A DNA stretch of 63,353 nt, counting the filler. It is 6 parts of 6 records of this genome, joined end to end, with 100 filler letters (N's around TTAATTAATTAA, not from the genome) between each part and the next. Parts side by side here need not be neighbours in the genome. Positions count along the whole stretch, not along the records: positions 12,859 to 32,916 come from SRR20825010_3247; 5 more parts are not named here. The stretch is one strand, 5' to 3'. Made by a program: the position numbers and the translations under genes. This document shows, piece by piece, positions 4,494 through 56,290 of the stretch. Positions within the stretch are counted from its first letter, which is position 1. Every line of letters starts with the position of its first letter. Below the pieces are notes generated by a model. That model was not told the DNA's origin, did not search any database, and was given only the letters and a program-made list of their open reading frames with translations.

Positions 4494-4593
4494 NNNNNNN
4501 NNNNNNNNNNNNNNNNNNNNNNNNNNNNNNNNNNNNNTTAATTAATTAANNNNNNNNNNNNNNNNNNNNNNNNNNNNNNNNNNNNNNNNNNNN
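4494..4593. other. Artificial contig spacer
   Basis: N44-TTAATTAATTAA-N44; composition jumps from AT-rich to GC-rich across it. Confidence 0.99.
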
Positions 4594-12758: not shown

Positions 12759-12858
12759 NNNNNNNNNNNNNNNNNNNNNNNNNNNNNNNNNNNNNNNNNN
12801 NNTTAATTAATTAANNNNNNNNNNNNNNNNNNNNNNNNNNNNNNNNNNNNNNNNNNNN
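12759..12858. other. Artificial contig spacer
   Basis: N44-TTAATTAATTAA-N44. Confidence 0.99.
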
Positions 12859-13853: not shown

Positions 13854-16800
13854 ATGCCGCTTTGGCAAATCGACATTCATCCTGCTCCCGGTCAAATCGA
13901 TCGACTCGGCGAACAAACGGCTCGTGAAATTCATGAACTCGGATTGGGCGACGACCTGCTGATCGCCGCTGCACGGGGATACTTGATCCAAGCCGACATC
14001 GACGAAGCTTCCGCCAACGAAATTGCGTCGACGTTGCTGGCCGATTCCATCACGGAATCGGTCGTCGTCGGGCATCCTGGCAAAGACGCTTCGCTGGTCG
14101 AAGCCGACCTGTCCGAGGCCCCCGAATCGTTGATGGAATTGCTGGCCGAGCGTGGCATCGAATCCGAACCGCACCTGGTGCACGTGATGCCCAAACCCGG
14201 TGTGATGGATCCGGTCGCCGCCAGTACCCAAGGCGCGCTCGCCGATCGGGGTGTTGAAGGCAGCACAGTCAAAACGTTCCGCAAATTCTGGATCGCGGGC
14301 ACCGACGAAGCCCAACTGGAAACGATCTGCCGCCGTGCCCTGTCAAACGATTCCATCGAAGCCTTTGTGATCGGGCCGTTGACGATGGATCGATTGGATG
14401 TCGGCTCGGCGGGCGAATTTGAATTGGTGCACGTGCCGATTCGCGAACTCGATGACGCCGGATTGGAAAAACTTTCCAAGGAAGGCCAGCTGTATCTGAC
14501 GCTGGTCGAGATGCAAACGATCCGCGATCACTTCGTCGAACTGGGACGTGACCCAACCGACATCGAATTGGAATCGGTCGCCCAAACTTGGTCGGAACAC
14601 TGCAGCCACAAAACACTGGCTGGCCGGATTCACTACAAGGGTCCTGGTGCGGATGGCACACCCGGCGGCGACGAACGCCAGTACAACAACATGCTCAAAG
14701 AAACGATCTTTGAAGCAACCCAAACCATTCGTCGCTCCCTGGGCGATGACGATTGGTGCGTCAGCGTGTTCAAAGACAACGCGGGCATCGTGACCTTCGA
14801 CGAACAAGACCACGTGTGCTTCAAAGTCGAAACGCACAATCACCCGTCGGCGCTCGAACCCTACGGCGGTGCCAACACGGGAATCGGTGGCGTGATCCGG
14901 GACCCGATGGGCACCGGCATGGGAGCCAAACCCGTCTGCAATACCGACGTGTTCTGCTTCGCCCCACCGGACGTTTCACCTGAAGAACTGCCACCGGGCG
15001 TGCTGCACCCCCGCCGAGTCATCCAAGGCGTCGTGTCCGGCGTGCGTGACTACGGCAACCGAATGGGAATCCCCACAGTCAACGGTGCGGTCTACTTTGA
15101 CGAACGTTATCTCGGCAACCCGCTGGTTTACTGCGGCAACGTTGGCATCATTCCTGTCGGCATGGAAGACAAGGAAGTCAAACCCAACGACTTGATCGTC
15201 GCGGTTGGCGGACGCACCGGACGAGACGGGATCCATGGGGCAACGTTCAGCAGTGCGGAACTGACCAGCGAATCTGAATCGCTGTCCGGCGGTGCCGTCC
15301 AAATCGGCAACGCGATCACCGAAAAGATGGTGCTCGACGTGCTGATGCAAGCTCGCGATCGCGGGCTGTACAACGCGGTCACGGACTGCGGTGCAGGCGG
15401 CTTCAGCAGCGCGGTTGGCGAAATGGGCGAAGAGCTCGGTGCCGAAGTTTGGCTGGACAAAGCCCCATTGAAATACGATGGCCTGACTTACACCGAGATC
15501 TGGATCTCCGAAGCTCAAGAACGCATGGTCTTGGCCGTTCCCCAAGAACGTTGGGACGAACTGCGTGAACTGTGCGAAAGCGAAGGCGTCGAGGCCGCCG
15601 CGATCGGCCGCTTCGTTCCCACTGGTCGACTGCAGTTGAACTTCCATGGCCAAACGGTCGGCGACGTCGCCATGTCGTTCTTGCACGACGGACGTCCGCC
15701 CGTGATTCGCGACGCGATCTACGAACCACCCAAAGCGAAACCATTGTCAATCGGCGACCGCGATGCTGCGGCCAACTCCGAAACCCTGCTCAAGATCCTG
15801 GGCAGCTACAACGTCGCCAGCAAGCACTGGGTGATCCGCCAATACGATCACGAAGTCCAAGCGGGCAGCGTCGTCAAACCCTTGGTCGGCCCACAATGCG
15901 ATGGCCCCGGCGACGCCGCTGTCGTGCGTCCCAAACTGAACAGCCGTCGTGGGTTGGTGATCAGTTGCGGCATGAACCCGCACTACGGCGACTTCGACAC
16001 GTATCACATGGCCGCTTCGGCGATCGACGAAGCCATGCGGAACGCAGTCGCGGTCGGTGCTGATCCTTCCAAGATCGCCATCCTCGACAACTTCTGCTGG
16101 GGATACACCGATCGAGCCGAAACGCTGGGGTCGCTCGTCCGGGCCGCGATCGCTTGCCAAGACCTCGCGGTCACTTTGGGCACGCCGTTCGTCAGCGGCA
16201 AAGACAGCCTGAACAACGAGTTCAGCTACTTCGACGACAAGAACGAAAAGGAAACCATCGCGATTCCGCCCAGCCTGCTGATCAGTGCGATGGGCCAAAT
16301 CGACGATGTCAGCAAATCAATCACGATGGACGCGAAGGAAGCCGGCAACGTGATCTTCCTGGTTGGCGAAACGCATCGCGAACTCGGCGGCTCGCACTAC
16401 GGCTTGGTCGAAAACGAACCCGGCGGTGCGGTCCCTGAGGTCGACGCAAAGTTGGCGAAGAAAACGTTTGCGACCGTCCACCAAGCGATCCAGTCACGAC
16501 TGGTCCGCTCGTGCCACGACCTGTGCGAAGGCGGCCTGGCGGTCGCTGCGGTCGAAATGGCTTTGGCCGGCGGATTGGGCATGAACCTCGACCTCGCAAC
16601 CGTTTCTCGCGAGCAACCCTCCAACGATGGCGTGCTCACCGCAGCCGCATTGTCAGCCACGGAAGTTCTATTCAGCGAATCAAACACTCGATTCCTGATG
16701 GAATGTGCCCCCGAATCAGCCGAAGCTCTGTCCAAGATTTTCGCGGACTCCGGGATCAGCCTGACTCGTTTGGGCGAGGTCACCGATTCGGGCCAATTCA

Positions 16801-16883
16801 CAGTCCGCGACGGTGACGCCGTGGTGCTGGAAACCGACATCGCGACCGCAAAATCGGCCTGGCAAGCCCCTCTGGATTGGTGA
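13854..16883 (+). CDS. purL: Phosphoribosylformylglycinamidine synthase PurL with N-terminal PurS-like extension
   Basis: [32 protein letters not shown] and SGKDS. Confidence 0.96.
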
Positions 16884-16933
16884 TTTAGAACCAATTTGGA
16901 AGCAAACTTCCTCAGAAGCTTGCTAAATTCGCA

Positions 16934-16973
16934 TTGAACCGCGAGCTGGTTTATTCTGTAATTGCTACAGAAT
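16934..16973 (+). promoter_or_regulatory. Candidate sigma70 promoter overlapped by a 21-bp palindromic operator (Fur/Zur-like)
   Basis: TTGAAC-N17-TGTAAT at 16934-16962; ATTCTGTA-ATTGC-TACAGAAT at 16953-16973. Confidence 0.45.
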
Positions 16974-17032
16974 GCATCAGCTTGGCGAAAAATCGCCGAC
17001 AAAAACGAACAACTTCAACCATTTGGCACCGC

Positions 17033-17506
17033 GTGGAACTCTGGGTCCGTCGAATCGCTTTGATCGCATATGTGGTCGGTGGCTGGCTTTTGCCGGCTGC
17101 CCACCATCATGTGGCGACGTGCGATTCCACCCATTCCCATGCTGGCATTCACGACGATTGCTCTCATACGCATTCGCCTGAAAATGTCGCCGGTTGTTGC
17201 TCGCACTCGAGCTCCGCGGACGCGGTCCAGCATGCACCGCTACCGCCAGGTGGCTCGGAAGAATTGCTGGTCTGGGAAACGAGCCTGCCGTCCGCAGAGA
17301 TCGTTTCGAATGACCAGCATTCTCATCAATGCGGTGACCTCTGTGCGTTGTGCAACGCTCGCACGATGGCTGATACCCCGATCGCGGCCTCCGTCCAACG
17401 CGAAATGGCTCGCTGCACGGCGAGTCACCGGATCGAATCGACGACCCTTGAAGACTCGGCAGATTGCTGGCGTCCGTACACACGCGGCCCACCTTCTTTG
17501 ACCTGA
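17033..17506 (+). CDS. DUF2946/CruR-like His/Cys-rich leader protein with C-terminal RGPP arrest motif (start uncertain: TTG 16982 or GTG 17033)
   Basis: Hydrophobic N-terminus RRIALIAYVVGGWLLPAA followed by HHH; 13 His and 9 Cys in 157 aa; CALC; ends RPYTRGPPSLT. Confidence 0.75.
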   Translation: MELWVRRIALIAYVVGGWLLPAAHHHVATCDSTHSHAGIHDDCSHTHSPENVAGCCSHSSSADAVQHAPLPPGGSEELLVWETSLPSAEIVSNDQHSHQCGDLCALCNARTMADTPIAASVQREMARCTASHRIESTTLEDSADCWRPYTRGPPSLT

Positions 17507-17600
17507 AAACTGCCGTTTTGGCTTGCGGTGAAAACCAGTTTCACTGTAACGCAAACTCACTGTCTTCCATCGAGAGCCAATGCGCTCTCATTTTCAGGTC
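17500..17600 (+). promoter_or_regulatory. Predicted mRNA three-way junction sequestering the DUF1559 ribosome-binding region
   Basis: GACCTGAAAA (17500-17509) is complementary to TTTTCAGGTC (17591-17600); internal hairpins at 17523-17549 and 17572-17589. Confidence 0.6.
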
Positions 17601-17607
17601 TCATTCC

Positions 17608-18621
17608 ATGTCACACATTTCCTGCCCAGCGGCGCGTGCCCACGCAAATCCAAGCAACCGATCGACTTCTGGAGCTTCCCTTCGCAAGGCTTTCACACTC
17701 GTTGAACTGTTGGTCGTGATCGCCATCATTGGCGTTCTTGTTGGCCTGCTGCTGCCAGCCGTCCAGGCCGCCCGCGAGGCCGCCCGCCGGATGTCGTGCC
17801 AAAACAACCTGCATCAAATGGGCATCGCCCTGCACAACTACCACGGCATCTTCAATCAGTTGCCCAGCGGTTGGTTGGCCGACGACATCGATCACCACGA
17901 ACCCGGCTGGGGCTGGGCCGCCGCGATCACGCCGCAAATTGAAAGCGGAAACATCTACGACACCATTCAATTCGGAATGGCCATTGAAGAAGACGAGAAC
18001 CAACAAGCACGTGAATCATCGATCCCAAGCTACATGTGCCCCAGCGATCCGCTAGAGACACTGTTCTTCATCGCCGAAGCTCACGGGGATGGTCATGGGC
18101 ACGAACATGACCACTCAGCAGCGTTGGATGACGACGACGACGATGATCACGACGACGAACACGAGAGCGGGCACAACGTCGACGACGGCGACGAGTTCTT
18201 GTTCAAAATCGCCAAAAGCAACTACGCCGGCGTGTTCGGAACGTTTGACATCCACGACGACATGTATCACGGCGACGGTTTGTTCTACGGCAACAGCCGC
18301 CACCGTTTCCGAGACGTGCTGGATGGACTGAGCCAGACCGTGATGGTCGGTGAACGCAACAGTCGTTTGGGTGGCTCGATTTGGCAAGGGCTGATCCCCG
18401 AAGCCAATGCCGCCGCGTCTCGCATCGTTGGTGCAGCCGATCACACTCCGAACAGTGATGCCGGCCACTTTGAAGACTTCAGCAGCTATCACGCCGCCGG
18501 TGCACAATTCGTCCTGAGTGATGGATCGGTGCGAATGCTGTCGCAGTTCATTGACTTGAAGGTCTACCACGCCTTGGTGACCCGTGCCAATTACGAAGTC
18601 ATCGAAGCCGACTCCTTCTGA
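17608..18621 (+). CDS. DUF1559 prepilin-type N-terminal cleavage / H-X9-DG protein with His/Asp-rich insert
   Basis: RKA|FTLVELLVVIAIIGVLVGLLLPAVQAAREAARRMSCQNNL; CPSD; C-terminal H-AAGAQFVLS-DG. Confidence 0.95.
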   Translation: MSHISCPAARAHANPSNRSTSGASLRKAFTLVELLVVIAIIGVLVGLLLPAVQAAREAARRMSCQNNLHQMGIALHNYHGIFNQLPSGWLADDIDHHEPGWGWAAAITPQIESGNIYDTIQFGMAIEEDENQQARESSIPSYMCPSDPLETLFFIAEAHGDGHGHEHDHSAALDDDDDDDHDDEHESGHNVDDGDEFLFKIAKSNYAGVFGTFDIHDDMYHGDGLFYGNSRHRFRDVLDGLSQTVMVGERNSRLGGSIWQGLIPEANAAASRIVGAADHTPNSDAGHFEDFSSYHAAGAQFVLSDGSVRMLSQFIDLKVYHALVTRANYEVIEADSF

Positions 18622-19797
18622 TCAGGCCGCCGACTTCCGGGCTGCTTGGGTTGGCGCTAGCCATCCTCGCATGCCATCCAGATCCGCCGACCAGGCTTCA
18701 CTGGTTCGGCGGTCACAGAATGTATGGAACAACCCGTCGATCGTGTCGCTGAGCGTTCGCACCGCTTCGATGCGATCTTCGGGACCGAAGTCGTCGTCAT
18801 CTTCATCCAAATGGATGCGAGCGCCACTGATCCCGAACGTCTCCGCTTGCAGAGTCAGGTCAAATTGCTGGCCTTCGCGAATCAACGTCATACCTGTCTT
18901 GCGAGGCAACTTGCCACTTTGGATCGCACGCATGGCCTCGGGCAATTTGACAGGGCACTCCGCGGAAATGGACTCTTTGCCTGACTCTCCGATGGGACAT
19001 TCCAGCGAAAGCGTCTTGGCCAGCATCAGCGTGACTTCGGTTCCGTCGAACGTCTCAATCGTGTCGGTTTCCGTTTCCAGCATCCACCACAGCCACAGCA
19101 AAAACTCGTTGCCAAGGAAGTCTGGTGACTGGGAATGCTCGTTCGCCCATGCGACACCGCTGAACCCTTCACCGGTGACGAAACTGGCGGGCATCACATC
19201 ATCCATTTCGGCATAGCGATCGTTTTCGCGAGCCCAATCCTGCGCGACGACACCCGCACTGATGTGCCCGCATTCGATTCCGAACACACGTTCGAGCAGA
19301 TCGACGCAGTGACCACTGCCGGTGCCTGCGGTTCCGCCGTAATAAAGCAGATCGCGACTGCAGTCCCACAACAAAGCGTGCTGTTGAAACTTGCGGTACT
19401 TGCCCGTTGCGGCTTCATTTTCACAGCGTTGCTCGACCGCTTCCTTGGCTTCTTTGCGTTGCGACTTCGTCGGTTTCCCGCCCGGATTTTCACGGCTCAA
19501 TGCCGCGAGCTCCATCGACAACCAAGCCTTCTTGATCACCGAAGGCACTTGGTTGGTGTCGACGCGAACACCAAAGTGCACAGCATCATCGATGATGTTT
19601 TTCGCCAGATCAAAATCTTGATCGAAAAGGTGATCGCCGCCCAGAAAACCCAAATGCACGTTTTCTTCGTTGGCGGTTTCCGTTCGCCCGGCCACGTTCT
19701 CTGCCATCCGCTCGATGTGTTCTTGCCCAAATGGGCCGTCTTCAAATTGATTGACGCGAAATCGTTCAAAAGAAAGGCTACCGGAGAGAAACGGCAT
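18622..19797 (-). CDS. RdgC-like (putative exonuclease/recombination-associated) protein
   Basis: MPFLSGSLSFERFRV, RVD..QVP, FLGNEFLLWLWW and EA...GKLP resemble RdgC-like proteins of planctomycetes and deltaproteobacteria. Confidence 0.6.
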   Translation of the reverse strand: MPFLSGSLSFERFRVNQFEDGPFGQEHIERMAENVAGRTETANEENVHLGFLGGDHLFDQDFDLAKNIIDDAVHFGVRVDTNQVPSVIKKAWLSMELAALSRENPGGKPTKSQRKEAKEAVEQRCENEAATGKYRKFQQHALLWDCSRDLLYYGGTAGTGSGHCVDLLERVFGIECGHISAGVVAQDWARENDRYAEMDDVMPASFVTGEGFSGVAWANEHSQSPDFLGNEFLLWLWWMLETETDTIETFDGTEVTLMLAKTLSLECPIGESGKESISAECPVKLPEAMRAIQSGKLPRKTGMTLIREGQQFDLTLQAETFGISGARIHLDEDDDDFGPEDRIEAVRTLSDTIDGLFHTFCDRRTSEAWSADLDGMRGWLAPTQAARKSAA

Positions 19798-19985
19798 GAA
19801 TGAGAATCCCAATCAATCGATGAGCGGAAGAAACCAGCCACTCCGTGTCGGCTGTGTCGTTGGCTTATCGTCCAACCTCAGCCTAGAAATTGCCGCGCTA
19901 TCGCCAGACCATCGCAACACCGCAACCTGCCCAGCCGGAATAACCGGCCGGCGACGACCACTCACGAGACCGGCTTTTCCGCCGA

Positions 19986-32916: not shown

Positions 32917-33016
32917 NNNNNNNNNNNNNNNNNNNNNNNNNNNNNNNNNNNNNNNNNNNNTTAATTAATTAANNNNNNNNNNNNNNNNNNNNNNNNNNNN
33001 NNNNNNNNNNNNNNNN
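32917..33016. other. Artificial contig spacer
   Basis: N44-TTAATTAATTAA-N44. Confidence 0.99.
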
Positions 33017-39692: not shown

Positions 39693-39792
39693 NNNNNNNN
39701 NNNNNNNNNNNNNNNNNNNNNNNNNNNNNNNNNNNNTTAATTAATTAANNNNNNNNNNNNNNNNNNNNNNNNNNNNNNNNNNNNNNNNNNNN
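39693..39792. other. Artificial contig spacer
   Basis: N44-TTAATTAATTAA-N44. Confidence 0.99.
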
Positions 39793-56190: not shown

Positions 56191-56290
56191 NNNNNNNNNN
56201 NNNNNNNNNNNNNNNNNNNNNNNNNNNNNNNNNNTTAATTAATTAANNNNNNNNNNNNNNNNNNNNNNNNNNNNNNNNNNNNNNNNNNNN
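56191..56290. other. Artificial contig spacer
   Basis: N44-TTAATTAATTAA-N44. Confidence 0.99.

Follow-up and report, generated by a model that had tools for sequence, protein, structure and literature searches.

A putative arrest leader upstream of a planctomycete DUF1559 gene, with a helix pairing its stop codon with the downstream ribosome-binding region

The window analysed here, a stretch of planctomycete DNA of 63,353 nucleotides (nt), contains a leader gene whose protein ends in RGPP plus three residues, followed on the same strand by a prepilin-type gene of the DUF1559 family. Ten nucleotides spanning the leader stop codon are exactly complementary to ten nucleotides in the ribosome-binding region of the DUF1559 gene. 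We consider it reasonably probable that a ribosome stalled at RGPP unmasks the DUF1559 ribosome-binding site, as in cutF-cutO, and we class the system as a new planctomycete representative of the nascent-chain metal sensors of CutF/CruR type, in this case with a helix that masks a ribosome-binding site. No paper on this leader or its RNA came up in full-text literature searches. The elements concerned are as follows.

16934..17506, plus strand: leader gene, 190 amino acids (aa) from TTG 16934 or 157 aa from GTG 17033
17054..17110, plus strand: hydrophobic segment IALIAYVVGGWLLPAA, then HHH; columns A42-W51, P54, A55, H57 and H59 invariant in the leader alignment A1
17342..17353, plus strand: CxxC motif C137-A-L-C140; C137 and C140 invariant in A1
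17483..17494, plus strand: RGPP codons CGC GGC CCA CCT; RGPP near the C-terminus invariant in 48 of 48 loci
17500..17509, plus strand: 5′ arm GACCTGAAAA, containing the leader stop TGA at 17504-17506; identical in four Rhodopirellula-type sequences
17523..17549, plus strand: inner hairpin of 11 base pairs (bp) including two G-U pairs, predicted by RNAfold
17572..17589, plus strand: inner hairpin of 6 bp, predicted by RNAfold
17591..17600, plus strand: 3′ arm TTTTCAGGTC, at −17 to −8 of ATG 17608, with a Shine-Dalgarno (SD)-like AGGT at 17596-17599
17608..18621, plus strand: DUF1559 prepilin-type gene, 337 aa (Pfam SBP_bac_10 9.9e-71, N_methyl 5e-06)

The stem in the window

A preliminary description of this DNA, made from the letters alone, had noted that the stretch holding the leader TGA is the exact complement of the stretch at −17 to −8 of ATG 17608, and that the latter contains an SD-like AGGT. 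Both points held: sequence and a repeat search agreed on two arms of 10 nt, 100% complementary and 81 nt apart, and the AGGT lies within the 3′ arm. The ACCU of the 5′ arm may act as an anti-SD-like strand.

When positions 17480-17630 were folded with RNAfold, the stem was present in the minimum-energy and centroid structures, where it closes a multibranch loop. The description had drawn this junction with two inner hairpins; RNAfold returned both, together with two further 3-bp hairpins that it had not listed. The fold has an energy of −39.1 kcal/mol (z = −3.03), and 2 of 200 shuffled sequences were equally good. In a 241-nt context the stem is kept, yet z is only −1.59 and 11 of 200 shuffles are as good. 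A search of the window for perfect 10-mer inverted repeats (loop 3-120 nt) gave 23 overlapping hits that reduce to about 12 distinct repeats, several of them terminator-like, and mononucleotide shuffles gave 6.35 ± 2.2 hits. The 10-bp repeat alone is real but not beyond chance; the meaning of the stem rests on its stop-to-start position plus its conservation.

An Rfam search of 16500-19000 returned nothing but sub-threshold microRNA and small nucleolar RNA noise. A promoter and terminator scan gave 0 promoter-like sites and three terminator-like sites, none within the spacer between leader and DUF1559. The junction itself was considered as an intrinsic terminator and rejected, as it is without a U-tract.

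Computed effect of a ribosome at the end of the leader

RAPP and RGPP are robust arrest cores that are refractory to EF-P; during the stall, their third codon occupies the P site and their fourth the A site (Fujiwara et al., EMBO J 2025, PMC12992588). By analogy, a ribosome stalled at the leader RGPP is expected to have Pro-186 (17489-17491) in its P site, with Pro-187 next in the A site. The 5′ arm then begins at +11 from the first P-site base.

For the free mRNA, the computed probability of being unpaired was 0.00 for the AGGT and 0.05 for the 3′ arm. When the mRNA up to +13 or +15 from the P site was removed, these values rose to 0.41 for the AGGT and 0.60-0.72 for the 3′ arm. Sequestration of the SD and start region by a stem, as in CutF, was thus found in silico only. 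The preliminary description had a stalled ribosome covering most or all of 17500-17509, which was too generous: the footprint extends to roughly 17500-17504, so that it includes 1-5 of the 10 arm bases. Its broader proposal, a switch of DUF1559 that is on during the stall and off upon release, draws support from the invariant RGPP and the comparative pairing described below and from the in-silico collapse of the stem at +13, even with the footprint overstated.

A terminating ribosome (P site at 17501) freed the 3′ arm equally, to an unpaired probability of 0.66-0.71. Since it opens the helix as well as a stalled one does, arrest would act by prolonging the open state.

Conservation of the pairing

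A profile built on A1 (14 leader homologues) matched 53 of 401 Pirellulaceae genomes in a profile search of a sample of the family. Six loci without a leader open reading frame (ORF) by motif search were excluded (L049, L061, L062, L066, L067 and L068), and a metagenome scan gave 5 confirmed loci only. Protein features were compared over 48 non-duplicate loci. L036, which has no in-frame ATG, and L058, which has no prepilin motif in range, were excluded from the RNA tests; these used 46 loci in 25 lineage groups of 1-8 sequences each. The groups were assigned by us from tail sequence and similarity, as were some start codons. The spacers could not be aligned across genera, and the architecture was tested instead.

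Among close relatives the spacer itself can be compared. Four Rhodopirellula-type sequences have a 101-nt spacer that is 93-98% identical to that of the window, with 88-97% identity in the leader and 90-98% in DUF1559, so that conservation of the spacer equals or exceeds that of the coding DNA on either side. Both arms are invariant in these four. The substitutions that fall in the inner hairpins keep pairing: G17527 is A in L044, which turns a G-U pair of the 17523-17549 hairpin into A-U, and C17585 is T in L029 and L001, which turns a G-C pair of the 17572-17589 hairpin into G-U.

Beyond the close relatives, minimum-energy folds of many lineages pair the RGPP/stop region with a stretch just 5′ of the ATG, using differing sequences. 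In L034, GGUCCACC pairs with GGUCGGACC; in the Aporhodopirellula type GGUCCG pairs with CGGAC, and in the Novipirellula type CGAUUC with GAAUCG. L057 and L060 form a compensatory pair (CCUGCU/AGCAGG versus CCUGCA/UGCAGG). In many lineages the RGPP codons themselves are the 5′ arm. RNAalifold, applied to eight Novipirellula-type sequences, predicted a long-range helix of 15 pairs that joins the RGPPAI codons to positions just before the ATG.

Partition-function profiles placed the peak of arrest-window partners at −40..−1 of the ATG. For spacers of at least 100 nt, the best 20-nt partner window lay at −45..−10 in 8.8 of 19 groups, against 2.8 expected. The duplex between the arrest/stop window and the start region (−40..+3) was 4.77 kcal/mol better for cognate than for non-cognate combinations, with an advantage in 17 of 25 groups (Wilcoxon p = 2.4e-4). 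Three control pairs of windows (the arrest window combined with +10..+53 or with +60..+103, and the start region combined with a coding window farther upstream) showed no cognate advantage (−0.02 to −0.80, not significant), and differed from the test pair with paired p values of 0.0015-0.005. A perfect helix of at least 7 bp was found in 24 of 46 cognate pairs and in 8.8% of non-cognate pairs. Comparing duplex energies over every natural window of a locus was also tried and set aside as non-discriminating, because GC-rich coding windows scored better.

Two other RNA features recur. The first is a second helix, seen in at least 10 loci from several lineages, between a stop-codon stretch GTTTGAT(T/C) or TTGATTGA and ATCAAAC or TCAATCAA located 23-40 nt before the ATG. 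The second is a post-stop hairpin in the Novipirellula-type spacers (L003 and relatives, columns 39-64 of alignment A3), with double-sided compensatory changes at five pairs.

The leader protein

The leader is more than a short peptide: the ORF at 16934-17506 encodes a protein of 157-190 aa. A start at GTG 17033 gives an N-terminus resembling that of the orthologues. The protein is His/Cys-rich and combines a hydrophobic N-terminus, HHH, CC and CxxC with an RGPP end, its last residues being YTRGPPSLT. Homologues were found in 13 named records from Rhodopirellula, Novipirellula, Aporhodopirellula and Rubripirellula, at 28-85% identity, and searches of the leader against Pfam and NCBIfam gave zero matches. 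In A1, the invariant features are ALIAYVVGGW..PA after basic residues, H-x-H immediately beyond, the CC pair, LCxxC and RGPP. The hydrophobic segment is presumed to be an export signal or membrane anchor, and the CxxC a metal-binding site.

The distance from the first Cys of CxxC to the Arg of RGPP is 47 or 48 residues in all 48 loci, although the sequence in between is poorly conserved. The distance from the N-terminal Trp to the same Arg runs from 103 to 188 residues, a variation of 85 in the N-terminal part, and the whole leader, counted from 12 residues before the GGW motif, measures 127-212 aa. RGPP is followed by 3 residues in 39 of the 48 loci, by 2 in five, 4 in three and 5 in one. The window holds a single leader of this kind and a single prepilin motif.

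Proposed mechanism and its alternatives

The leader would be an exported or membrane-anchored His/Cys-rich nascent-chain sensor, whose C-terminal RGPP would stall the ribosome with Pro-186 in the P site. In the free mRNA, the stop-codon stretch, its ACCU mimicking an anti-SD, would pair with the AGGU region 8-17 nt before the ATG and block initiation. The leading edge of a stalled ribosome, between +11 and +15, would arrive at the foot of the helix; the start region would then open because the remaining A-U-rich pairs could not hold the multibranch loop, and DUF1559 would be translated. Once the stall is released, the helix would re-form. The duration of the stall is presumably set by a transition metal at the CxxC, 47-48 residues behind the arrest point. 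What the analysis shows is the anatomy and its conservation, the co-variation of the arms and the switch in silico; the stalling, the export, the metal and the sign of its effect are inferred. Hints of a metal signal may be seen in three places: the leader with its CxxC, CC and His motifs, the His/Asp/Glu-rich insert of DUF1559, and a gene of the ZIP family in L004 and L013.

Several observations weigh against unmasking by a stalled ribosome. Occlusion to +11 only leaves nine base pairs in place, and if the upstream coding RNA is free, the 3′ arm partly re-pairs elsewhere and the AGGT is unpaired with a probability of only 0.15-0.16. Family-wide, a modelled stalled ribosome raises the mean predicted accessibility of −20..+3 only modestly, from 0.51 to 0.57, with an increase in 18 of 25 groups. 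Within loci, the duplex energy of the start region (−15.9) is no better than that of neighbouring windows (−16.7 and −16.4). Eight of the 25 groups lack a cognate advantage, among them loci with spacers of 266-461 nt. The Novipirellula-type long-range helix shows single-sided changes only and no double-sided covariation. The lineage groups and some DUF1559 start codons are our own assignments, and the extent to which planctomycetes rely on SD pairing is uncertain.

Attenuation of the CruR type is a less likely account, with perhaps a modest chance of being right. A ribosome stalled at RGPP would block Rho and let RNA polymerase enter DUF1559, and upon its release Rho would terminate in the spacer; the structure would be a pause or scaffold element, with masking of the ribosome-binding site secondary or absent, though the two could also act jointly. 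The leader does carry the hallmarks of CruR/DUF2946 proteins (CxxC and R[AG]PP at a constant distance from each other, the latter about 3 residues short of the C-terminus), and CruR itself acts via Rho across a 162-bp structured spacer (PMC9426467). The spacers here are long (median 163 nt), with C exceeding G in 36 of 46 (C 0.26, G 0.20), and the loci with 266-461-nt spacers are without arm-to-start pairing. A Rho model does not, however, predict the lineage-specific complementarity of the arrest/stop window to −40..+3, and neither a rut site nor a terminator was mapped.

Plain translational coupling, in which any ribosome at the leader stop opens the helix, DUF1559 tracks leader translation and RGPP has no regulated pause, is improbable. 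It fits the position of the stop codon within the 5′ arm and the in-silico result that termination, with the P site at 17501, frees the 3′ arm no less than a stall does. It does not fit the retention of RGPP, the CxxC distance and the tail of 2-5 residues in 48 of 48 loci despite poorly conserved sequence between, the use of the RGPP codons themselves as the 5′ arm in many lineages, or the avoidance of RGPP in proteomes unless it serves arrest (PMC12992588). Least likely, and very improbable, is an incidental 10-bp repeat or generic mRNA-stability element without a role in DUF1559 initiation, an idea favoured by the roughly 12 repeats in the window against about 6 hits in shuffles, by the drop of z to −1.59 and by the empty Rfam search, but opposed by a spacer conserved as much as its flanking genes, by cognate-specific complementarity in 17 of 25 groups with flat controls, and by the enrichment of pairing partners just 5′ of the ATG.

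The DUF1559 gene and its surroundings

A prepilin-type FTLVELLV gene lies 87-501 nt downstream of the leader in 47 of the 48 loci, the exception being L058. Two types of leader-associated DUF1559 protein were observed. Type 1, to which the window protein belongs, has about 310-340 aa and a His/Asp/Glu-rich insert with up to 9 His in 40 residues; in the window this insert is encoded at about 18082-18201. Type 2 has about 400-426 aa, among them 5-8 Cys, and carries GD[VI]HH close to its C-terminal end.

Two alternative DUF1559 starts, TTG 17464 and TTG 17518, were rejected: L001 and L044 have CTG in place of TTG 17518, third codon positions are not favoured among the nine substitutions in the spacer (alignment A2, our own count), and other genera have in-frame stops just before the ATG.

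Directly beyond DUF1559 lies a convergent ORF of 396 aa (18622-19812, minus strand) without a Pfam match. Because it follows DUF1559 directly, leader and DUF1559 appear to form a two-gene unit in the window. Upstream of the leader is a long ORF (13854-16883), which we take, by eye and on its translation alone, to be like a purine-synthesis enzyme. At the Aporhodopirellula-type loci L004 and L013, the leader is immediately preceded, on its own strand, by a ZIP zinc-transporter gene (Pfam Zip, about 1e-32; 1785-2867 and 1913-2905 respectively). Metatranscriptome contigs cover a small share of the stretch; one of 164 nt corresponds to 17503-17666, and they are uninformative on expression, transcript ends and operon structure. 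The window also contains ten 44-N runs that form five pairs, the two runs of each pair being separated by 12 bases (4494-4593, 12759-12858, 32917-33016, 39693-39792 and 56191-56290).

Significance

DUF1559 is among the most expanded and least understood of planctomycete gene families, and a full-text literature search turned up just four papers that name it, none of them about its regulation. With its CxxC-to-RGPP ruler of fixed length and an arm co-evolving with the start site of DUF1559, the leader makes a concrete, testable switch, and the leader points to transition-metal homeostasis as the role of the leader-linked DUF1559 branch. We put forward only tentatively, and with the balance of belief somewhat against it, the wider idea that the arrest and stop codons serve as a built-in anti-SD strand, that occupancy of the sensing site is read out as unmasking, and that this DUF1559 branch, whose protein is His/Asp-rich and pilin-like, is a transition-metal-responsive envelope protein under nascent-chain control. 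If true, this would provide a first regulatory and functional handle on the family. The CutF/CruR principle would be extended to another phylum, to leaders overlooked by the DUF2946 model, and to arrest codons that form the masking strand. RAPP leaders before DUF1559 genes are already present in the 2025 source data (PMC12992588), and the result adds detail and changes no known biology.

Comparison with known systems

RAPP and RGPP show enrichment towards the C-terminal ends of small proteins, secretory or membrane-bound, that are encoded upstream of metal-homeostasis genes, and RGPP is strongly avoided in proteomes unless it serves arrest (PMC12992588). In the Fig. 4B source data of that paper, 'DUF1559 domain-containing protein' is in the top 30 downstream classes, with 112 RAPP against 68 AAPP cases (6.5-fold); the main text mentions neither DUF1559 nor RNA secondary structure. 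The present leader resembles the proteins of this catalogue in its C-terminal RGPP, in being a small protein with a hydrophobic N-terminus, and in preceding a gene on the same strand. R-[AG]-P-P near the C-terminus of a protein of less than 300 aa was found in 48 of 48 loci.

SecM-secA and MifM-yidC2 had been named as precedents in the preliminary description. Together with VemP-secDF2, these are systems in which C-terminal arrest opens a stem that hides the downstream ribosome-binding site (discussion of PMC9973294), a principle that the present case would share according to our model. The closest precedents are nevertheless CutF-cutO and CruR, the latter of the DUF2946 leaders. The downstream gene here encodes DUF1559 plus N_methyl rather than any part of the Sec or YidC machinery, and the leader has motifs presumed to bind metal. 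The SecM, MifM and VemP leaders monitor Sec/YidC activity and control genes of the export machinery.

DUF2946/CruR proteins are defined by CXXC and RAPP 45 residues apart (± 1-2), with RAPP ending three residues short of the C-terminus (Roy et al., mBio 2022, PMC9426467). In Bordetella pertussis, CruR (Bp2923) precedes bfrG across a 162-bp structured spacer, and copper relieves the stall so that Rho terminates (PMC9426467). The present leader is similar in having CxxC and R[AG]PP about 3 residues from the C-terminus at a fixed spacing (45 intervening residues in CruR, 43-44 here, in 48 of 48 loci), and in standing first in its operon with a long structured spacer next. CruR is Rho-dependent and copper-relieved, whereas a part for Rho and the metal are conjectural here; it also differs in not requiring a signal peptide and in its target, a TonB-dependent transporter rather than DUF1559.

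Membership of DUF2946 was searched for by several routes. Pfam PF11162 (DUF2946) matched 0 of the 14 leaders at E ≤ 10, and in a six-frame search of five genomes it matched other CxxC-bearing ORFs that end in RGPP (38 and 24.5 bits), not this locus. hhalign of A1 with these DUF2946-type ORFs aligned the RGPP tail only (90.7%), and BLASTP gave a single short common block, HVATCDSxHSHAG. In the ESM Atlas a DUF2946 cluster stood at rank 8 (score 0.94), which is a lead only. The leader thus appears CruR/CutF-like in architecture, its DUF2946 membership by sequence model being unproven. The DUF2946-matching ORFs occur as divergent pairs in two genomes (L069, 642-1256 minus and 1413-1982 plus; L070, 1492-1941 minus and 2074-2682 plus). 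One relative, L074, has a prepilin motif 353 nt downstream, and the DUF2946-type paralogues (alignment A4) have the same 48-residue CxxC-RGPP distance.

CutF of Rhodobacter capsulatus is an exported protein whose copper-binding site lies some 45 residues away from its Pro-rich end (Ozturk et al., mBio 2023, PMC9973294), and its prolonged stalling melts a stem-loop that hides the cutO SD (PMC9973294; bioRxiv 10.1101/2025.02.05.636593). The published filter for CutF-like proteins asks for less than 150 aa, PP in the last 15 residues, a signal peptide and a same-strand gene within 1000 nt; the present leader, at 157-190 aa, exceeds the length, while its PP and downstream gene fit. As in CutF-cutO, a small, here putatively exported, sensor would have its Cys metal motif some 45 residues ahead of the Pro-rich stall motif at the C-terminus, and by our model a stem hides the SD of the next gene until a stalled ribosome melts it and the gene is turned on. 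The two differ in the arrest core (RGPP here, a PPP-type tail in CutF), in the metal motif (CxxC here, CxxxC in CutF), in the target (a prepilin-type DUF1559 protein here, a multicopper oxidase for CutF) and in phylum, which here is Planctomycetota. The masking strand also differs: in CutF it would belong to a local intergenic stem-loop, whereas here it is made of the leader's own stop or arrest codons, which reach the DUF1559 start region across an 81-nt multibranch loop.

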